Shown here: piece after piece, positions 36,805 through 51,216 of the stretch
Layout of the letters: every line of letters begins with the position of its first letter
Position numbering within the stretch: the stretch's first letter is position 1
Source of the DNA: a virus
Lineage: Duplodnaviria > Caudoviricetes
Virus record (IMG/VR): IMGVR_UViG_3300009702_000029
Span: 1-57,447 of that record
DNA length: 57,447 nt
Reading direction: 5' to 3' (one strand)
Notes under the pieces: generated by a model
What the model saw: only the letters and a program-made list of their open reading frames with translations
What the model was told of the DNA's origin: nothing
Databases searched by the model: none
Position numbers and translations under genes: made by a program

Positions 36805-38883
36805 ATGTCTGATGATTCAATAAAAGTAAGAAAATCCATGATATTCGAGAAAAGTACTCCTGGGGCTAATGTCCAAGATGGTGAGATCTATCGTGATATT
36901 TCTGGAGATCTAATATTCCAAAATAAGGATAATACTGTTGTATTGTCTAATCCTACATTTGATTCTGGATTGGGAATAAATTATATTGCATTAACAGGTG
37001 GAAAAAATCATAATTTTGAATCAGGAGTAACCGGATATTCAGCATATGCAAATGCTGCTGCGGCTATTCCCGTTGATGGAACAGGCGGATCTCCAACAGT
37101 TACAATTACACAAAATTTAGCAGTTCCGTTAAGAGGATTAGCTGATGGCGTAATCACGAAGGATGCTGTCAATAGGCAAGGTGAGGGTATTAGTTATGAC
37201 TTCGCTATTGATGATGCAGATCACTCAAAACCATTAGTTATTTCCTTTGATTATTCTGTATCTGCTAATTTTGCAATTAATAGTGGAACTGCTGTAGATC
37301 CTTCAGATGTTATGGTTTATATCTATGATATTGATAATGCTACTTTGATCTACCCTTTATTGACTGGTCTTGATGGATCAGGTCGATTCGTATCATCATT
37401 TCAAGCATCAGCTAGTTCCACCAATTATAGATTATTATTTCATATTGCCACAGTTAATGCATTACCATGGACCATGAACATAGATAGTATTTCTATTGGT
37501 CCTAGTGCAGTAGTTTCATTAGATGGGCCAATAACTGATTGGGAAGATTTTACTCCAACAAGCACTTGGACTACTAATGCAACGCAAACAGGAAAGATGC
37601 GCAGAGTTGGCGATAGTTTTGAAGTAGATGGACATCTAACGTTGTCTGGTGCAACGAATGCATCAGAATTAATATTAGATCTTCCCGCTGGACTTACAAT
37701 TGATACGAATAAGATATCATCTACGACCACAAGAGAAGTAGTGCTAGGTACTTGTATAGTTGTTGGATCATCTGGGACAAATTACCCAGGAAAGATTTCT
37801 TATCTAACTTCAACTACACTTCTTCCTGTTATTTATGCAGAACAAGATGAAACAAATCATCGATCAAAAATAGATTCGATGAGTTCTATAACAAGTCGTC
37901 CAGAGCCCATTGGAGCTGGAGACGGCATCCATTATCGGTACAAAGTACCCATTCTTGGGTGGCAGTCGGGAAAGACAAGTGCTGTAGCTTTAGATAGTAA
38001 TAGACCAGTTGAGTTTTCAGCTTATCTGGCATCTCCACAAAGCATACCCGATATCACGACAACGACTGTTGTGTATGACACTGTTGTTAACGATAGTCAT
38101 GGAAATTACAACGCTTCAACTGGTGAATGGACAGTTCCTGTTAGTGGCAGATACGACATCAAAGCTGGAACAGGAATGGCGTCTGTGTCATGGACTGTTG
38201 GGAAACAATATACCGTCTATGCATCAGTTAATTCAGGTCCTAAAAGACGCTTAGTTAATAACATTCAATCTGCGACAGCTATAATCGCTAAATTTTTTAA
38301 TGGTTCAGTGTCCTTGGATCTTGTAGCAGGGGATATAGTTGAAATTCAGGTTTTTCATAACCAAGGCGGCGCAGTTAACACCCTTTCAGGTGAAAGTTTA
38401 TTATATGTTGCACTTGAAAAGACAGATACAGGATCTCCACTAGCTGCGTTGACTGAAAAGGTAGTAGCTAGATATGTTTCTAACTCTGGCCAGATCATGA
38501 CAAATGGCGTGGCGACTACTGTTTTATTCGAAAATAAACAAAAAGACACACATGGAATTTATAACATCTCAACTGGTGTGATAACTATCCCAGAAAATGG
38601 GGATTATTCTCTATCTGCAATTACACGAATCACAGGTGTAACTGCTAGTACGGGAGAAGTTGCATTATCTATTACAGATGGAAGTGATGTAACACAAGTT
38701 GATGGCCCACAATTTACTATCCCCAATTCAACTCAGGCATCTGCTAATATCCAAACAGTATTATATGATGCAAAAGCGGGTGATCAATTTAAAGTAAAAC
38801 TCTTTCATAATAATGGTGCAGATAGATCTTTATATTCTGTGTCGAATACTAGAAATAGTTTAAGTATTTTTAAAATAAATTAA
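36805..38883 (+). CDS. Tail fibre/receptor-binding protein with two C-terminal C1q/TNF-like domains
   Basis: FSAY....Q......V.YD....D..G.YN.STG.WT.P.SG.Y pattern occurs twice; GGAG RBS. Confidence 0.7.
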   Translation: MSDDSIKVRKSMIFEKSTPGANVQDGEIYRDISGDLIFQNKDNTVVLSNPTFDSGLGINYIALTGGKNHNFESGVTGYSAYANAAAAIPVDGTGGSPTVTITQNLAVPLRGLADGVITKDAVNRQGEGISYDFAIDDADHSKPLVISFDYSVSANFAINSGTAVDPSDVMVYIYDIDNATLIYPLLTGLDGSGRFVSSFQASASSTNYRLLFHIATVNALPWTMNIDSISIGPSAVVSLDGPITDWEDFTPTSTWTTNATQTGKMRRVGDSFEVDGHLTLSGATNASELILDLPAGLTIDTNKISSTTTREVVLGTCIVVGSSGTNYPGKISYLTSTTLLPVIYAEQDETNHRSKIDSMSSITSRPEPIGAGDGIHYRYKVPILGWQSGKTSAVALDSNRPVEFSAYLASPQSIPDITTTTVVYDTVVNDSHGNYNASTGEWTVPVSGRYDIKAGTGMASVSWTVGKQYTVYASVNSGPKRRLVNNIQSATAIIAKFFNGSVSLDLVAGDIVEIQVFHNQGGAVNTLSGESLLYVALEKTDTGSPLAALTEKVVARYVSNSGQIMTNGVATTVLFENKQKDTHGIYNISTGVITIPENGDYSLSAITRITGVTASTGEVALSITDGSDVTQVDGPQFTIPNSTQASANIQTVLYDAKAGDQFKVKLFHNNGADRSLYSVSNTRNSLSIFKIN

Positions 38884-40395: not shown

Positions 40396-40602
40396 ATGAC
40401 GCTAAGGCACAAGATTCTTGAATTTCTGTATACTCAAACGCAAAAGAAATCAATTCAATTCATTAAATCTGGAATGGTTGAGGATTTTGAAGAATTTGTG
40501 ACTAAAATTATTTCAGAACGAGAATTAGGAGAAGCATCGGATCGAATGCGTCTACATCAAGCTATAGCTGAAGAAAAAGCCGAAGGGGAGAAGGATGTAT
40601 AA
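40396..40602 (+). CDS. Hypothetical protein
   Basis: AGGAG/GAGG RBS; 68 aa, helical; overlaps the chaperonin start. Confidence 0.6.
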   Translation: MTLRHKILEFLYTQTQKKSIQFIKSGMVEDFEEFVTKIISERELGEASDRMRLHQAIAEEKAEGEKDV

Positions 40603-42289
40603 AAGAGTCTTAAATTCAAATCAATTAAGGGCAGTTGCAGGAAAAGCCATTTCTTTAGTTGCAGATCCCGTAAAGAGAACTCTGGGACCTGCTGGGCAGC
40701 CTATTATTGTGGAGCTTGCGGGACAGAATCCAGATGGCTCATCCCTTGACCCCATTATCACTAAAGATGGTGTAACTGTCGCAGAGCATGCCTCTTTTAG
40801 AGATCCAGCTTTAAATACTATTGTAAAAACTATCATCCAAGTTGCTAAGAAAACTGTGTCCCAAGGCGGGGATGGAACTACAACTTCTGTAGTATTAGCT
40901 GAAGCTATTTATAAAGAAGGGATGAAATATGTAGAGCGTGGCGCAAATAATATTGAATTATATAATGCCCTTAAAGCTATTAAAGATGAAGTTTTAGAGT
41001 ATATTGACGAGATTAAAATAGATGTTACTACCGATGAACAAATTAAAAATGTAGCGATGATTTCCTCAAATGGAGATGAGGAGATCGCAACTATCGTAGT
41101 TGAAGCAATTAAAGCTGCAGGAGAACATGGATATATTGAACTAGAAGATGGATATACTAAAAATTGTGTCATTAATGTCATTGATGGAGCTTCTTACAAA
41201 AGAGGTTGGAGAAACTTTGGCCCAAATGGATCGTTGATGGTCAATGATAAAGCCAAGAATTCTTGTGAACTTACAGGAGATAACGGAGTGGCAACGCTAC
41301 TTTACGCAGGAAAGTTAGATAACGTCCATGAATTACATGATTTAATTAATAAATTGTATAAATTTGATGAGAATAAGGGATTTTTAACTGAGATCTTTCC
41401 TTTTTTAATTGTGGCATATGATTATTCAGATGATGTTCGAAATTTCATTCTTCAACAAAGAACTCAAGCAAAACTTCCATTGGCAGCAATTAAAGCTCCA
41501 GCGGACGGTAGTCCTAATTCTAGAACAGAAATGCTTTACGATATGGCGGCACTTACGGGAGCCACGGTCTCGGCAAGAGGTATCTTAGATCTTGATAAGG
41601 TGGATGAGACTCATTTAGGTGGAGCAGAATCTGTATCAATATCTCCTGAAGATACTGTTTTTTACAATGTATCTGGTGATAAAGCGGATGTTAAACGCAG
41701 AATTAAAGAATTAGACACTCTTTTAGAAACTTCAACTCTTGATCCTTGGGACCAACAGAATATACGACTTAGAAAAGGAAAGTTATCTCAAGGAATTGTA
41801 ATTGTACGAGTTGGAGGAGATACTGAGCCGGAAATGAAAGAAAAGAAAGATAGGGCAGAAGATGCACTTTGTGCAGCAAAAGTGGCTGTCAAAGCTGGGG
41901 TAGTTCCTGGAGGTGGAGTAACACTTTATAATGCAAGTTATTTAATTGACAGGTCTAATGCCGGGAGTATTGCTGATAAAATCATGGCAGTAGCTCTTCG
42001 AGCCCCCATGCGGCAGATTATAGAAAATGCTGGAAAATCACCAGAAAAGATTTTCACAGTTCTCGAAATGGACCCAGGAGAAAACAACGACGGCTATGAT
42101 GCGAGAACACATAAATTTGCAAATATGGTAGATTCGGGAATACTTGATCCCGCTAAAGTTACAAAATCAGCACTTGAGAACGCAGTATCAATTGCAGGAT
42201 TATTATTGACGACTGGTGGAGCCTTAATTTCGGACGTTCTACCAGAGGACGGCAAAGAAAACCCACTTGCAGCAATGTTTGGAGCTTAA
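40595..42289 (+). CDS. groEL: Phage-encoded GroEL-like chaperonin (Cpn60)
   Basis: V..TLGP.G, ITKDGVTVA, GDGTTT, VGG.TE.EMKEKKDR.EDAL.A, GVVPGGG, GILDP.KVT.SALENA.S.A...LTT. No GGM tail. Confidence 0.95.
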   Translation: MYKRVLNSNQLRAVAGKAISLVADPVKRTLGPAGQPIIVELAGQNPDGSSLDPIITKDGVTVAEHASFRDPALNTIVKTIIQVAKKTVSQGGDGTTTSVVLAEAIYKEGMKYVERGANNIELYNALKAIKDEVLEYIDEIKIDVTTDEQIKNVAMISSNGDEEIATIVVEAIKAAGEHGYIELEDGYTKNCVINVIDGASYKRGWRNFGPNGSLMVNDKAKNSCELTGDNGVATLLYAGKLDNVHELHDLINKLYKFDENKGFLTEIFPFLIVAYDYSDDVRNFILQQRTQAKLPLAAIKAPADGSPNSRTEMLYDMAALTGATVSARGILDLDKVDETHLGGAESVSISPEDTVFYNVSGDKADVKRRIKELDTLLETSTLDPWDQQNIRLRKGKLSQGIVIVRVGGDTEPEMKEKKDRAEDALCAAKVAVKAGVVPGGGVTLYNASYLIDRSNAGSIADKIMAVALRAPMRQIIENAGKSPEKIFTVLEMDPGENNDGYDARTHKFANMVDSGILDPAKVTKSALENAVSIAGLLLTTGGALISDVLPEDGKENPLAAMFGA

Positions 42290-42291
42290 TA

Positions 42292-43383
42292 ATGGCAGGT
42301 AAACAGACAACTAGAATTAGTTATTCATCGGTCAATGATTTTAAAGAATGTCCGACCAAAATGTATAATAAAAAGAAATACTCAATGATCAAGCAATCAT
42401 CAGCTTTGGCTTTTGGATCAGCTATTGAGGCGGGAGTTGAGGCGCTTCTAACAGGAAATACAATTGATGAGGCTATTGACATCTTTCATGAACATTGGCA
42501 CACTCGTCCTGCAAACAAATGGGAAGGTGCCAGGCAGATCTTTGATTCCGAAGATATATTTTATTATGCATCAGATTATGATAAAAATCTTTTAGATGTT
42601 GAAGCTTTTGATTTATTTGATGAATGGTGTAGTGAAATTAATATAGATCCTCCCAAAGATTATTTTAAATTTGTTGGAGAAATTCAAACAGCCTTCAAAA
42701 AGGAGGAAGAAGTAACAGATGAGGATCGCAGACTCTATCATAGAATTATGTGGTATTGCGTAAATACTAGAGGACCCTATATGATTGAGGCTTTTGCGCG
42801 TGACATCATGCCTAATATAGAGGAACTGTTATCTTGTCAAAAAGATGTTCTTATTAAGAATAAAGATGGGGATAAAGTTACAGGATTTATCGATTTTATA
42901 GCTAAATATAAAGATATAAAAGGGCCTGTCGTTTGGGATTTAAAGTCTGCAGGTAGATTTTACGAGTCTCATAATATTGATTCAAGTGATCAACTCCGAG
43001 TATATGCTGTATCAGAAGATATCAGAACTGTGGGATACTGGGTATTGATTAAAAGTCTGAAACATAAGAAGTTTTGCACGAAGTGTGATCATGAACGAGC
43101 TGGGGCAGATTTTCGAAAAAAGAATTGTACGCAAAACGGCTGTAAGGGGAAGTACGAAGTAATTCGTACAGAGGGTCTAACTCAAGTTCTAACAAAGACT
43201 CTCACTCAAGCGGACGTTGATGATGTAATGGAAGATTTTTCAGAGATTCTAATGGCAATTAAAAATGGCTTAAAGTGGAAGAATGCTAATAGTTGTTTTA
43301 ATTATGGTACTAAATGTGAGTTTTACGACAATTGTTGGGCCGGTAAGGCTCTTAGTGAACTGAAACATCTTAAAAAGAGGTAA
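42292..43383 (+). CDS. PD-(D/E)XK exonuclease (RecB/Cas4-like)
   Basis: ISYS....F.ECP, GFID, DLKS, QL.VY, C-terminal Cys cluster plus an extra CxxC...CxxxxC insert. Confidence 0.85.
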   Translation: MAGKQTTRISYSSVNDFKECPTKMYNKKKYSMIKQSSALAFGSAIEAGVEALLTGNTIDEAIDIFHEHWHTRPANKWEGARQIFDSEDIFYYASDYDKNLLDVEAFDLFDEWCSEINIDPPKDYFKFVGEIQTAFKKEEEVTDEDRRLYHRIMWYCVNTRGPYMIEAFARDIMPNIEELLSCQKDVLIKNKDGDKVTGFIDFIAKYKDIKGPVVWDLKSAGRFYESHNIDSSDQLRVYAVSEDIRTVGYWVLIKSLKHKKFCTKCDHERAGADFRKKNCTQNGCKGKYEVIRTEGLTQVLTKTLTQADVDDVMEDFSEILMAIKNGLKWKNANSCFNYGTKCEFYDNCWAGKALSELKHLKKR

Positions 43384-45008: not shown

Positions 45009-47132
45009 ATGCTTGTAAGGGTTACTCAGTCGGTCAAGGATTATGGAACACTCGTTCATCCAGACGAAGTGGAGGCCTTGATCGACGACCCTTCTAAGGA
45101 TTGGTATAAATCTCCCTTTTATTATGGAAATGATGTTCTTGAATATTTTAAAGAACATAAGAATAGTATCAAGGGCTACACTGGAGAGGTTTGGACAGAT
45201 TCTCTTTATTGGGATTTAGATTGTAAAGGAAATTTTGAAGAAGTTAGGGAAGGTGCCATTTGTCTTATTAACAAACTTATAGACTTAGAACTTGATTCTG
45301 CAATTGAACTTTATTTTAGTGGCAATAAGGGAGTTCACGTATTTCTTAGAACAAAGAATAAATTTACCCCAGATGAAGCAAAAAAGATCTGTTATAATTT
45401 GGCTTATGAGGCCGGAGTTCTTAAATATAAAGATAAGAACGGTAAGGCCATATTTGATACGACTGTTTATAACATTAATCGAATCTTTAGAATACCTAAT
45501 ACAAAACATCAAGAATCAGGATTATTTAAAATCCAATTGGATATTGATGAATTTGAAGTAATTAGTGAAACTAAAGTTCGAAAGCTTGCTAAAAAGCCAG
45601 CAGAGATCGTATATGCCACACCCATAGAGGCTGAATTTTTAAAAGAAGATTATAATACTCAATCACAACTTGAAGTGGTATCAAATATTGTAGATATTAC
45701 ATCATTAAAGGAAAAATATATAGGAGATTTTAATCCTTTAGACTGTCCTCCTGATAAACGAAGATGTATTTATGTTCTAGAAAATGGATATTTTGGACCA
45801 GGAGAACGCGAGAATGCATCTATAAGATTGGCAGCTTATTATCATGGTCAAAATTGGACCAAAGAACAAACTTTTGAAAAATTAGTTGATGCATTGGATA
45901 AACGGGCAGAAAATTATCCAGATGCGACTCCTTGGAAAGAAGAAGACGTACACCGAGTAGTAGATCTTGTATATTCTGAAGGATGGAATGGTGGTACTTA
46001 TTCTTGTAAAACTGATGATTTTTTACGATCAAAATGCGATGTTGGAGCTGGACCATGTTGCAATAATACTTCTGCAAAACCCTCAGGAGTAACAGTTGGA
46101 GGTTTAATTGATCAATATATTAATTATGGTCTAGAAGCTTTAGATGAATATCCTAAAACGGGGTTAGATTGGGTAGATAACTTAGTTAGATTTCGACCGC
46201 GCAATTATTCTATTATTAATGGAGCAAATGGATCAGGTAAAACTGCATTTTCAATTCAATGGATGGAACATCTTAATGAACAGAAGATGTGGCATATTAT
46301 ATTCTCTGCCGACATGGCCAATACCTCATTATTTGAAAAAATGGCAGCAAGGAATACAGATCTTACTCCTATGGATATCGAGAGAGCATTTAATAAACAC
46401 TTCATTGATAAGGAAGCTCAAAAACGTGTGACTGCTGCTCTTAGGGAAAAATATCCATATAGCATTTTTGACTTTACATCTGCGCTTACATCACGACATA
46501 TTGAACGTGAGATCAGACTTTGGAATGAACTTGGATATAAGATTCAAATAGGTTTCATTGATTATGCAGGACGAATGATTGGAGATAATGATAGTCAATA
46601 TCAAAATGCTACACAGATTGCTTTGGAAGCTAATGATATTGCAAAACGAACTAATACTCATTTGTGTTATATCTCTCAAATTCCACGGGATGAGGGAGAT
46701 CATACTAGACCTCTAAGATCTAGTCGTGTATCAAAAGATTCGGGAGCATGGGAAGAAAATGCCACTATCGTCATTAATGTATGGAGGCCTATGGGAGATG
46801 GCATTGAGGATTTAGATAGCTATATGCATATTTATATTGCAAAGAATAGATCTGGAGCTTTAGCTGAACGAGTATTTTGGTGGGAAGGTAAGCAAGGTAG
46901 AATAAGTAATATTTCTGAAGAAGAGTTCAAGGCGTATAAAGGTTTTTGTGAGGAATTAGATCGACCAAAACCATATGAGCAATTTGAAAATCGAACTAAT
47001 GATAGAAATAAGCTTCAAAGAAATGATCGGTATAGGGCAAGTAGGAAAGATAATGACAAAGAAACAGATCAGTTACATAATGATCGAGAATCAAGAGCAA
47101 CTAAACGAGGTTCTAAGTTGTCTAAAAGATGA
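45009..47132 (+). CDS. AEP-family primase fused to SF4 (DnaB-like) helicase
   Basis: WDLD, FSGNKG.H, R.FRIPNT.H (AEP); PriCT-like G.R...RLA region; GANGSGKT, IDY, SQ..R, IAKNR.G (SF4). Confidence 0.9.
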   Translation: MLVRVTQSVKDYGTLVHPDEVEALIDDPSKDWYKSPFYYGNDVLEYFKEHKNSIKGYTGEVWTDSLYWDLDCKGNFEEVREGAICLINKLIDLELDSAIELYFSGNKGVHVFLRTKNKFTPDEAKKICYNLAYEAGVLKYKDKNGKAIFDTTVYNINRIFRIPNTKHQESGLFKIQLDIDEFEVISETKVRKLAKKPAEIVYATPIEAEFLKEDYNTQSQLEVVSNIVDITSLKEKYIGDFNPLDCPPDKRRCIYVLENGYFGPGERENASIRLAAYYHGQNWTKEQTFEKLVDALDKRAENYPDATPWKEEDVHRVVDLVYSEGWNGGTYSCKTDDFLRSKCDVGAGPCCNNTSAKPSGVTVGGLIDQYINYGLEALDEYPKTGLDWVDNLVRFRPRNYSIINGANGSGKTAFSIQWMEHLNEQKMWHIIFSADMANTSLFEKMAARNTDLTPMDIERAFNKHFIDKEAQKRVTAALREKYPYSIFDFTSALTSRHIEREIRLWNELGYKIQIGFIDYAGRMIGDNDSQYQNATQIALEANDIAKRTNTHLCYISQIPRDEGDHTRPLRSSRVSKDSGAWEENATIVINVWRPMGDGIEDLDSYMHIYIAKNRSGALAERVFWWEGKQGRISNISEEEFKAYKGFCEELDRPKPYEQFENRTNDRNKLQRNDRYRASRKDNDKETDQLHNDRESRATKRGSKLSKR

Positions 47133-49479
47133 AGCAACTGAGGTAGCTTTTGATATCGAGACGACTGGGGTTCAAGAACATGTAGTAGAGACTATAGGCA
47201 TAGCCTTTACATGGTTCACAGATGGTGGAATTTATCTTCCATTATATGTTTATAATAAAGAAGAAGATAAGCTTAAGCCCTATTTTGATCTTAAAGTTCA
47301 AGAGGAAATGATTCATAAATTATGTGAAACACTTTTGGATTATAAGCTCATAATGCACAATGGCGTATTTGATATTGCCTGCATTTTTCATCGTTACGCA
47401 ATCAATCTTACTGCTGCACTTTGGGCAGATACTATTTTAATGAAACATACAGTTGATGAGGAACGTCCATTTGGATTGAAGCAAATAGGTGAAAAGCTTT
47501 TTGGAGAAGAAGCCACAGATGAACAAAAAGATCTTGAAGAATCTGTTAAAGCTAATGGTGGAAGGTGGAATAAGAAGAACAAAGATATGTACAAAGGAGA
47601 TCTTGATTTACTTGCAAAATATGCTATTAAAGATGTTATTTTGACTTTAAAAATTTATGATGAATATAGTATAGAAATGGAACAGCAAGGATTAGATAAA
47701 TTCTTTTATAAACAGGAAGTTATGCCTCTTTATAAAAGTGCGACAATACCCATGAAGTTAAATGGAATGTACATTGATATAGCGTATTTTAATAACTTGA
47801 AAAAGGAAGTTGAAGATGGTATAATTAAGCTAACTGATGAGGTCTTTGACATGATCGAAGATGACATAGAACCTAAAGTTCGTGAAATTTTAGATAAAAG
47901 TATAAGATCCTCAAGGACAGGTAAATTTGCTGAAGGATTGTTGCGGCATTATGAACTACCAGTGCCTCTTAATAAGAAGACTGGAAAGCCCACACTTGCT
48001 AAAAGTGCGTTGCGATCTCTTGAAGTTGAATTTCCTGAGCATCCTGCAATAACTTGGTTAATGTGGGAAGCGCCCAAAAAATTAGTCACTGTCGAAAAAG
48101 AGATAGAAACACCTATTTATGCCGCCGGAGACGATCCCGAATTTGATAAGGCCCGAGATTATATCAAGGAAATTGTCACAGTTTAGAAATTAATTAAAGA
48201 CGAATCAGTCGAAGGTCCTTCTTTGCCTGATGACGTCATTTATGCTGTCAAAAAGGAATTATACGTTGAACGCTATCCTGCTTACCCTAGGGTATTTAAT
48301 TTATCTTCTACCCATCATCTTAGTTGGTTATTATTTGATGTTTACGGACAGAAAGCGACGAAACATTCGAAAAAGACGGGCCAGCCTACGGTTGATAAAG
48401 ACGCCCTCGACCAATTCGACCTCCCATTCATCCCACTTCTCGCAAAATTAAAAAAAGAAGAAAAACTTTTGAGCACTTATATAGGACCTATTCTTGAAAA
48501 GCAACATAATGGATGGTTGTATCCCTCAATGCAACAATTTGGAACTACGTCAGGTAGATATTCTTGTGGTGGTGGGTTAAATTTTCAAACACTTCCAAGA
48601 GATGATAAAAGAGTTAAAAAAGGTTTTATAGCACCTCCAGGCTATAAAGTAGTAGCTGCTGACTTTTCTTCGTTAGAACCCCGCATTTTTTCATGGGTAT
48701 CAGATGATCCAGGACTTAAAGCAGTTTATTGGGATAATTTGGATCTTTATTCACAAATTGCAATTGATGTATTTGGTCTTGAAGGAGTTAGTGCTCATGA
48801 AGAAGATGATAACTTTCTTAAAAAAGTTCAGCCAAGCATGAGACAATTATCTAAAGTTTTTACACTTGCCGTACCTTATGGTGCAGGTGCTGGACGTATT
48901 GCGAATATTCTGAATAAAGATTATAATGAAGCAGATAATATTATTAAAGCTTACTTAAATGCTTATCCGGGTCTAAAAACTTACATGACCACGCAAGAAA
49001 AGAATGCTTTTAAAACTGGAATGGTATACACTCGTTTTGGACGTATTCGACATTTACCTCATGCAAAAGAATTATATGATAAATATGGTCAATGTTTGTT
49101 TAATAAAAAGCGTTTAACTGTAGCATTAATGAAAGAAGGCTTTGATCATGAAGAAGCCAAAGACGAATCTAACGAGCTTTTTTACAAATTTCGTAACTAT
49201 CTAAATAATGCTAAGAATTTTCCAATTCAGAGTACCGCAGCACATGTAACTAATGCAGCGCTTATTTACTTGGCAGAACTTTTAGAAGATAATAATATCG
49301 ATGGTTGGATTTGCTTACAAGTTCATGATGAAATAATACTACTTGTTAAGGAAGAACAAGCGGAATTTGCTGGAGAATTAGTGAAAGAGGCGATGGAAAA
49401 TAATTGGGTAGCGCAAGAAATTGACATTCCAATGATTGCTGTGCCAGAAATAGGAAATAACTTCGCCGAAGCAAAATAG
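47053..49479 (+). CDS. polA: Family A DNA polymerase with 3'-5' exonuclease domain, interrupted by an in-frame TAG at 48184-48186
   Basis: Exo I DIETTG, HN..FD, YA.KD; GT.SGRYS, motif A DFSSLEPR, motif B K...LA..YG, motif C VHDE. The two track ORFs are in the same frame, separated by one TAG. Probable start ATG 47053. Confidence 0.9.
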
Positions 49480-49494
49480 GAGAATATAGATATT

Positions 49495-51216
49495 ATGGCT
49501 AAGAAAAAACTAACTGCTGCTCAAAGAGCTAGAGAAACTGCTAAGAAAAAGAAAGAGCAAGAAAAACTTAAAAAAGAGAAAGTAAAAGCCAAGCTTGAAA
49601 AACAAAAAGCTGCGCGAAAGCGAGCAATGCTTGAGAAGTATGTAAAGATTGTTCAGCAAACTAACATGTTCCCTACACGTTCAGACTTAGCTACCGTAGG
49701 TATTTCCAGAGATAATCTACGACATTACTTTGTAAATATTAAAGGTATGCGAGATGCCGCCAAGATGACCTTTCCCGAAGTATTTGAAGGTGTGGTGGAT
49801 GTTGAGAATTATATCGACAAAAAATATCAAGAGGCGCTCCAAAAAGAAATTAAAAAATATAAAAGATTCTTCATAACTACTGCTGTTAATGGTCAGTTTG
49901 TTCATCCTGGATTTATGGAGAGCATTAATACTTATTGTAAAAAGAATAAAACAAAATTATTAATTCTCCCATGTCATGATCCTGCACATAATTTAGATAA
50001 TCAAATTGAATGGCATTTTGATGATGTTATTTCACAAAATGGACATGATATTGTGTTTTCTGAATTATCTTTAAATTCAAATATCCATATTAGTGGACTT
50101 AGAGTGACAGCAAAACAAATCAACCCGACTACGGGACTTGCTAGGGTGTCACAAAATAAGGGTAGTTTTATTTTTGGTTCACCAAAACAACCACTTGAAT
50201 TTAATCCTGTTGCAAGTAAGAAGATGCCTCATGCATTAATGGGAACTGGAGCATGCACAGTCAAAAATTATAAAACCACCAAAGGTAACTCACTTAGATC
50301 AGCTTTTCTTGCAGATCATGACCACGAATTGGGTGGGTTAATTGTTGAAATTGAGGATGATAAGATTTATCATTTTAGACAAATACAAATTGATGTCAAA
50401 GGCAAATTTATAGATCTTGGAATAGAATATTCAGGCAAAAGCACCAAAGCTGTAAGAGGAACTAGACTTGTATTGGGAGATTATCATGCCGGAGAGCATG
50501 AAGAAAGTGCCGTTAATGCTTGGGAGCAAATAATTAATCAACTCAAAGTAGAGGAACTTTTCTTACATGATGTACATAATGGACTATCCACTAATCATCA
50601 TGAAGAAAAAAATATGATTCTTCGTGCTAAACGCGCACAAGAAGTTAATCAAATATCTCTTGAAGCTGAATTAAAGATCACTGCCAGAGAAATTGATCGT
50701 ATGGCTTCTTTGGAAAGTGTTAAAAAAGTAGTGATAATTAAATCAAATCATGATGAGTTTTTAAATCGTTGGTTAAATGAGTGTCGTTTTAAAAATGATC
50801 CAATTAATTTTCAATTAGGCTGCCGATTAGCAGATAAAAGCATAGATGGAGCCGATCCATTGCAAGAGGGCATCAAAGAAGTGGGAGGATTAAAGCATTC
50901 CCGCAAAGTATTGTGGCTCAAGCGTGATCAGGACTATAAATTTGCTGATATTGAATTGGGAGCACATGGAGATGTGGGACCTAATGGGGCTCGCGGATCT
51001 AAGGCTAATTTGGAAAAGGCGTATGGTAAGTGTGTCATTGGTCACTCTCATACTCCTGGGATTCTTAGAGGTGTTTTTCAAGTTGGAACAACCTCAAAAT
51101 TTCAGTTGGGCTATAATAGGGGAGCATCTAGCTGGATGCATACTTCATGCCTAGTCTATCCAAATGGCCAACGTCAATTGATTAATTCAATTGGTGGTAA
51201 ATGGCGACTAAAATAA
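49495..51216 (+). CDS. Large calcineurin-like metallophosphoesterase-fold protein
   Basis: GDYH, HD..NG, SNHD, HGD, GHSH motifs; basic N-terminal extension. Confidence 0.75.
   Translation: MAKKKLTAAQRARETAKKKKEQEKLKKEKVKAKLEKQKAARKRAMLEKYVKIVQQTNMFPTRSDLATVGISRDNLRHYFVNIKGMRDAAKMTFPEVFEGVVDVENYIDKKYQEALQKEIKKYKRFFITTAVNGQFVHPGFMESINTYCKKNKTKLLILPCHDPAHNLDNQIEWHFDDVISQNGHDIVFSELSLNSNIHISGLRVTAKQINPTTGLARVSQNKGSFIFGSPKQPLEFNPVASKKMPHALMGTGACTVKNYKTTKGNSLRSAFLADHDHELGGLIVEIEDDKIYHFRQIQIDVKGKFIDLGIEYSGKSTKAVRGTRLVLGDYHAGEHEESAVNAWEQIINQLKVEELFLHDVHNGLSTNHHEEKNMILRAKRAQEVNQISLEAELKITAREIDRMASLESVKKVVIIKSNHDEFLNRWLNECRFKNDPINFQLGCRLADKSIDGADPLQEGIKEVGGLKHSRKVLWLKRDQDYKFADIELGAHGDVGPNGARGSKANLEKAYGKCVIGHSHTPGILRGVFQVGTTSKFQLGYNRGASSWMHTSCLVYPNGQRQLINSIGGKWRLK

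Follow-up and report, generated by a model that had tools for sequence, protein, structure and literature searches.

A lone in-frame TAG in a phage family A DNA polymerase gene is private to one assembled record

Classical conditional-lethal amber mutants are known in phage polymerase genes. Breaks and stops of other kinds have been described in phage genes as well. According to the accessible part of Czernecki et al. 2023 (PMC10201439), a +1 frameshift separated the exonuclease from the polymerase part of PolA in the S-SBP1-like T7-like cyanophages, where the stop and the new start are both conserved across the clade. In TAG-recoded phages (crAss-like and other gut phages), TAG occurs within many ORFs and suppressor tRNAs are present, as far as the accessible excerpts of the sources go (PMC11210395, PMC10879173, PMC10607447); in phAss-1 the codon lies within 41 ORFs (PMC10607447). 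The bypass in T4 gene 60, as outlined in the accessible portions of two sources, involves matching GGA codons, a gap of 50 nt and a signal in the nascent peptide (10.1101/2024.12.09.627546, PMC5462505).

Here, we analysed a phage polymerase gene that carries a single TAG between its exonuclease and polymerase parts. A first-pass annotation, made from the letters of the sequence, had offered for this codon site-specific readthrough or dependence on a suppressor tRNA, ribosomal bypass, a naturally split two-subunit PolA, and a sequencing error or dead allele. The gene lies in a linear IMG/VR virus record of 57,447 b, analysed over its whole length and hereafter called the window, for which CheckV gives a completeness of ~49%. 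We show that the TAG is private to this record, the normal gene being uninterrupted and having Glu at the site.

The polymerase gene and its surroundings

Judging from its gene content, the window is part of a myovirus-type phage, since it encodes a tail sheath, a GroEL-like protein and replication proteins (primase-helicase, PolA, dNMP kinase and helicases). The genomes of the phage's relatives measure 110-120 kb. The GroEL-like chaperonin gene (40595-42289; match to phrog_5725, E 2e-108) is located upstream of the replication module. The features of the polymerase gene are collected in Table 1.

Table 1. Features of the polA region, in positions of the window
Feature	Positions	Strand	Remarks
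Family A DNA polymerase gene (3'-5' exo plus pol)	47053..49479	+	808 codons including the internal TAG
3'-5' exonuclease domain	47074..47664	+	PF01612, residues 34-230 of the protein read from 46975
Variable beta-hairpin insertion between exo and pol parts	48076..48198	+	AlphaFold2 model of P0129; TAG in the second strand
Internal in-frame TAG	48184..48186	+	T at 48184; another assembly has G there (GAG, Glu)
GAAGGT plus TTG, possible unconserved restart site	48211..48225	+	SD-like motif at -12 to -7; used as the start of P0128
Polymerase domain	48274..49470	+	PF00476, residues 30-428 of the protein read from 48187
Terminal TAG of polA, genuine	49477..49479	+	C-termini of relatives; next ORF has its own ATG at 49495

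The first-pass annotation had described one reading frame with a single break, and this holds: between 46975 and 49482 the only stops are the two TAG codons of Table 1. The codons around the break (ATT GTC ACA GTT TAG AAA TTA ATT AAA GAC) are found at 48172-48201, and the other landmarks that had been pointed out downstream are also in place, namely an in-frame GTC 27 nt past the GTT (48208-48210), the GAAGGT (48211-48216) and the TTG (48223). The claimed exonuclease and polymerase halves are real, with the Pfam match to PF01612 upstream of the TAG (E 8.3e-15) and that to PF00476 (DNA_pol_A) downstream of it (E 9.1e-62). Hence, both domains of a PolA with 3'-5' exonuclease occur in one frame. 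The uninterrupted ORF of the relatives is missing from the record, which has the one TAG at 48184, but is found in the other assembly and in the ENA protein described below.

The N-termini of the relatives align to the MTKK at 47053, whereas the source gene call (P0127) begins at 47080. With the start supported by homology, the first 80 nt of polA (47053-47132) coincide with the end of the primase-helicase gene; with that of the source gene call the overlap is of 53 nt. At the other end, a C-terminus of the ...AEAK type is shared by all of the 19 aligned relatives, two of which carry an additional D. A 573-aa ORF (49495-51216) follows directly 3' of polA in the same frame, the gap consisting of the TAG plus 5 codons. 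It has no Pfam match and matches phrog_1745, 'DNA transfer protein', over its full length (E 2.3e-101). A fusion of polA with this ORF was considered and rejected: the ORF has its own ATG and the PolA of relatives ends before it.

The internal TAG is one point difference within a conserved gene and not a chance pattern. The window contains 6 pairs of open stretches of at least 100 codons separated by a single stop, and a single gene was recognised across the stop only in the polA pair; the remaining 5 are boundaries between ORFs, each of which has its own start.

The site in other assemblies and in relatives

Only one public sequencing run is listed as containing DNA of the window, the subsurface metagenome X1, with 0.97 of the sampled words, and none is listed as containing its RNA. 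A contig of X1 (9584 b) spans positions 47600-48800 in one piece. Over these 1201 bases it differs from the window solely at 48184, where T is replaced by G and the codon becomes GAG. The word depth of this contig is only 6.87, and X1 is possibly the source sample of the window itself. By our own count the difference lies ~930 letters from the end of the contig (the program printed 255).

An intact protein is also on record. Looking up the N half from 47080 led to a cluster in which the two half-proteins of the window, P0127 and P0128, are grouped with P0129, a 799-aa ENA protein encoded on a contig of 12,877 b. P0129 is identical to the read-through of the window from 47080 at 797 of 799 residues, and the two differences are an E at the TAG site and Q779R. 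The first-pass annotation had guessed from the peptide context that the codon was a GAG turned into TAG; the G of the X1 contig and the E of P0129 bear this out, and among its options it is the error or dead allele that the data favour. Taken from any of three candidate starts, the Glu read-through has no exact match in the collection, because P0129 differs also at Q779R. A search with 51 nt of the site, N replacing the variable base, gave 0 matches in metagenome_contigs and 0 in viral_contigs, from which the window's own records have perhaps been left out, so that it is uninformative on the allele.

Among the 17 other window proteins that were looked up, 10 are letter-identical in ENA; therefore, the assemblies represent the same phage. 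The four neighbours of polA (707, 573, 255 and 185 aa) are letter-identical in ENA and also in Logan. The three assemblies, i.e. the window, X1 and ENA, are perhaps not independent samples. The comparison rests on contigs, which drop rare variants and give no allele counts.

The read-through protein has 324 significant matches, and the 120 that were listed are all single polypeptides of 527-1163 aa, the best homologue among them being 68% identical over 757 aa. IMG/VR contains 116 stretches that code for a relative, and 80 loci were kept; the polA match was checked in 39 of these 80, and in none of the 39 does a stop occur inside it. These loci came from an alignment-based search, the viral_contigs locus search with the C half alone having returned no relative. 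Among phage records with names, the best PolA match is from a Flavobacterium phage and, at 29.6% identity, is too distant to inform on the site. When short versions of the N half were sought, only 7 proteins emerged, 5 of which are on contigs of at most 6.9 kb (4 of at most 3.7 kb) and may be cut ORFs; there is no sign in this search of a conserved split form. Among relatives such as P0030, P0032, P0116 and P0009, some are long, with 1081-1163 aa, and carry intein or homing-endonuclease domains (PF14528, PF14890, PF13392). P0009 has a Cys-rich insert of ~41 residues after a ...LQTLPR motif.

An alignment of 19 relatives places the TAG in an indel-rich region between '...HPALxWLL' and 'GPxLPxxVxYxIKKEIYVER'. 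The column of the TAG itself holds K five times, T three times, P twice, E, L, V, S, Q and R once each, and a gap in three sequences. The alignment of relatives that the first-pass annotation had proposed thus speaks against conservation of the stop and of its context: the loci have no stop and the column is variable or gapped. The pattern is also not that of a programmed readthrough site with a conserved stop and context, since the same phage reads GAG there. As grounds for abandoning a functional stop, the first-pass annotation had itself named GAG or CAG in most reads or a sense codon in all close homologues, and as far as contigs can show this is the situation of the gene.

The AlphaFold2 model of P0129, built with 35 relatives (mean pLDDT 90.8, pTM 0.82), predicts that the site belongs to a long beta-hairpin. 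Its strands would be residues 333-346 and 360-373, the TAG corresponding to residue 369. Over residues 331-380 the block pLDDT is 82, 68, 54, 77 and 80, so that the tip of the hairpin has low confidence (68, 54). The insertion (residues 333-373 of the model) is present in variable form in most relatives. The two closest ones (P0002 and P0003) lack most of the segment, and together with P0012 they account for the gaps at the TAG column. The pseudo-symmetry that had been noticed in the peptide (LVTVEKEI ... IVTVEKLI) is real, and in the model its two arms form the two strands of the hairpin. A DNA duplication was considered as the source of this symmetry and rejected, as the region 48000-48300 gave only an 18-nt pair of 72% identity and a weak inverted pair. 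P0129 resembles Taq and Klenow from about residue 403 onwards, just before FNLSS, and this makes the earlier placement of the TAG 'just before the thumb' seem reasonable.

Explanations for the T at position 48184

Very probably, the TAG is a single-base G-to-T difference carried only by this assembled record, at a site where nothing is programmed. The normal polA would be one uninterrupted ORF with a GAG (Glu) inside a variable, surface-type beta-hairpin between exo and pol, and a readthrough signal, a bypass and an evolved gene fission would all be absent. The G allele and the intact protein are there in the other assemblies and the relatives have no stop; that the T has no function is what we infer. 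The T would then be an error of assembly or sequencing, or else a nonsense allele that really occurs as a minority in a polymorphic population, and we regard the odds between these two as roughly even. Should the allele be real, the genome would make the exonuclease fragment, of 377 aa, and at best a little polymerase fragment from the chance TTG, and its carrier would be defective or rely on wild-type phage co-infecting the cell. On the present evidence, the TAG is a true feature of the record and not of the biology of the phage.

Two properties of the difference point towards error: it is a transversion, and coverage is low. T-bearing reads must nevertheless exist, because an assembler does not invent a base, and the other differences of the record offer a context. 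Over ~10,439 residues in 18 proteins, the window and the ENA versions differ at 11 residues: three, clustered, in the 363-aa exonuclease, two in PolA, two in the 692-aa protein and one in each of four others. At least 8 of the 11 must be transitions, and TAG/GAG is one of only two necessary transversions. Besides 48184, the window has private alleles at 42619, 42629, 42631-42633, 49415, 3602, 21389, 23754, 32280, 37618-37620 and 38282. In the 363-aa exonuclease (42619-42633) the three differences fall within five codons, with D110, C113 and S114 in the window against N, Y and R in both ENA (P0137) and Logan (P0138), and the window record is again the odd one out. The Logan versions carry private differences too (P0146, P0138). 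This looks like a polymorphic population whose variants were resolved differently by each assembler. A real T allele is plausible since the pattern of differences resembles real strain variation, and if a nonsense allele really were frequent enough to enter an assembly, this would have to be explained.

One might propose that the T is a real amber variant that circulates at appreciable frequency beside GAG in a natural subsurface phage population. It would persist because the break hits a dispensable hairpin, a functional replicase would still arise, from the two pieces (with re-initiation at TTG 48223) or by occasional suppression, and the variant would represent a first step of PolA fission. 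We consider this scenario unlikely.

Its stricter version, in which the tolerated T allele yields an exonuclease fragment ending at the TAG and a polymerase fragment re-initiated at TTG 48223, the two associating non-covalently in an incipient fission still present as a polymorphism, strikes us as quite unlikely. The break does fall in a hairpin of lower model confidence, in a segment largely missing from the two closest relatives, and the other differences between the window and the ENA assembly resemble real variation. Naturally split exo/pol PolAs are also on record in the S-SBP1-like cyanophages (PMC10201439, in its accessible part). There, however, a whole clade shares the stop and the new start, unlike the situation in this phage, whose near-identical genotype has an unsplit gene, as have all of the 39 relatives.

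The putative restart site can be judged more closely. The source gene caller used TTG 48223 for the 418-aa C-terminal ORF (P0128), and restart there is mechanically possible because SD-like 4-mers are common in the window, being found upstream of 30 of the 44 genes, and because the weak SD-like motif GAAGGT stands at -12 to -7 of this in-frame TTG. Yet, the TTG simply encodes the Leu of a Leu/Ile-Pro pair that is largely conserved (L391 and P392 hardly vary), and restarting on it would drop 13 residues. In the relatives L002-L007 the aligned codon is ATC, ATC, CTC, CTT, CTG and CTC, respectively, i.e. a start in none of the six. Nothing in this alignment suggests selection for a start at TTG. 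The natural two-subunit PolA of the first-pass annotation consequently loses its footing: the break is absent from P0129, and neither the stop nor the start shows the conservation across a clade that marks a naturally split PolA.

Very unlikely, in our opinion, is a real T allele that is read through by an amber suppressor tRNA, of the host or from the missing half of the phage, in such a way that suppression sets the ratio of exonuclease fragment to full-length protein. Phages that suppress TAG with suppressor tRNAs of their own are known from the accessible parts of PMC10879173 and PMC11210395, and tRNAs of the phage could lie outside a window that is only ~49% complete. Yet TAG is an ordinary terminator here. 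In a crude set of 62 non-overlapping ORFs, 47 end in TAA, 9 in TAG and 6 in TGA; genes follow tightly on the TAG-terminated ones, among which is polA itself with the C-terminus of its relatives. The earlier statement that TAG is not globally reassigned is thereby upheld. Contrary to a TAG-recoded phage, with many in-frame TAGs and avoidance of TAG as terminator, only one TAG-split gene was recognised in 57 kb.

The search for a CUA-anticodon tRNA that had been recommended was negative in the window, in which ARAGORN finds no tRNA gene at all, the window amounting to ~49% of the genome. Five near-complete related genomes carry 0 or 1 tRNA-like genes each (a match in 2 of the 5), and no CUA suppressor was recognised among them. 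One match is a tRNA-Met(CAT). The other lies at 1501-1606 of L083 (record G005), matches RF00005 with 40.8 bits, and has 48 nt replacing the 15-nt anticodon arm. It was not called by ARAGORN and may be an intron-bearing tRNA; the PolA of L083 is only ~30% identical. The site is moreover unconserved and the same phage reads GAG there, so that site-specific readthrough or dependence on a suppressor appears improbable.

Finally, a bypass of the T4 gene 60 type from GTT (48181) across the TAG to GTC (48208), suggested by a Val codon before the stop and a second in-frame Val codon 27 nt downstream, is scarcely credible and effectively refuted by the comparison of alleles, because an intact GAG allele exists in which the 'gap' codes for EKLIKDES (P0129): most relatives have residues there, many of them a K after the TAG column, the presumed take-off and landing codons differ, and RNA structure over 48150-48270 is not significant (z = -0.23; 75 of 200 shuffles fold as well or better).

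Meaning and comparison with known systems

For annotation, we advise reading the gene as one PolA with Glu at the site. More generally, these results call for caution, in that a lone in-frame stop in a metagenome-assembled viral contig can mimic recoding and vanish in another assembly. If the T allele were frequent, the case would be modestly interesting: a wild phage population would be maintaining a nonsense allele in an essential replication gene or, alternatively, an exo/pol fission like that of the S-SBP1-like cyanophages would be at its beginning.

How does the locus compare with the systems described above? With T4 gene 60 it shares a stop directly after a potential take-off codon, but, set against the accessible accounts of that system, its codons are unmatched, structure is absent and the stretch to be skipped is coding in the intact allele. 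With the TAG-recoded phages it shares an in-frame TAG in a phage gene; relative to what the accessible parts of those papers describe, the window shows a single TAG of this kind, employs the codon for termination and holds no tRNA. The S-SBP1-like split PolA offers a broader parallel, at least in the accessible part of its description: the break falls between the 3'-5' exonuclease and the polymerase, new termini there would be solvent-exposed and the start is close to the stop. By that same account the present break is different, since it consists of one substitution, is missing from a 797/799-identical protein and from 39 of 39 relatives, and is followed by an unconserved TTG. There remains the likeness to an ordinary amber mutation or base-call error. 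Although seen here only in a metagenome assembly, the T resembles such a change in that one base turns GAG into TAG in an otherwise intact essential gene, with the wild-type allele alongside.
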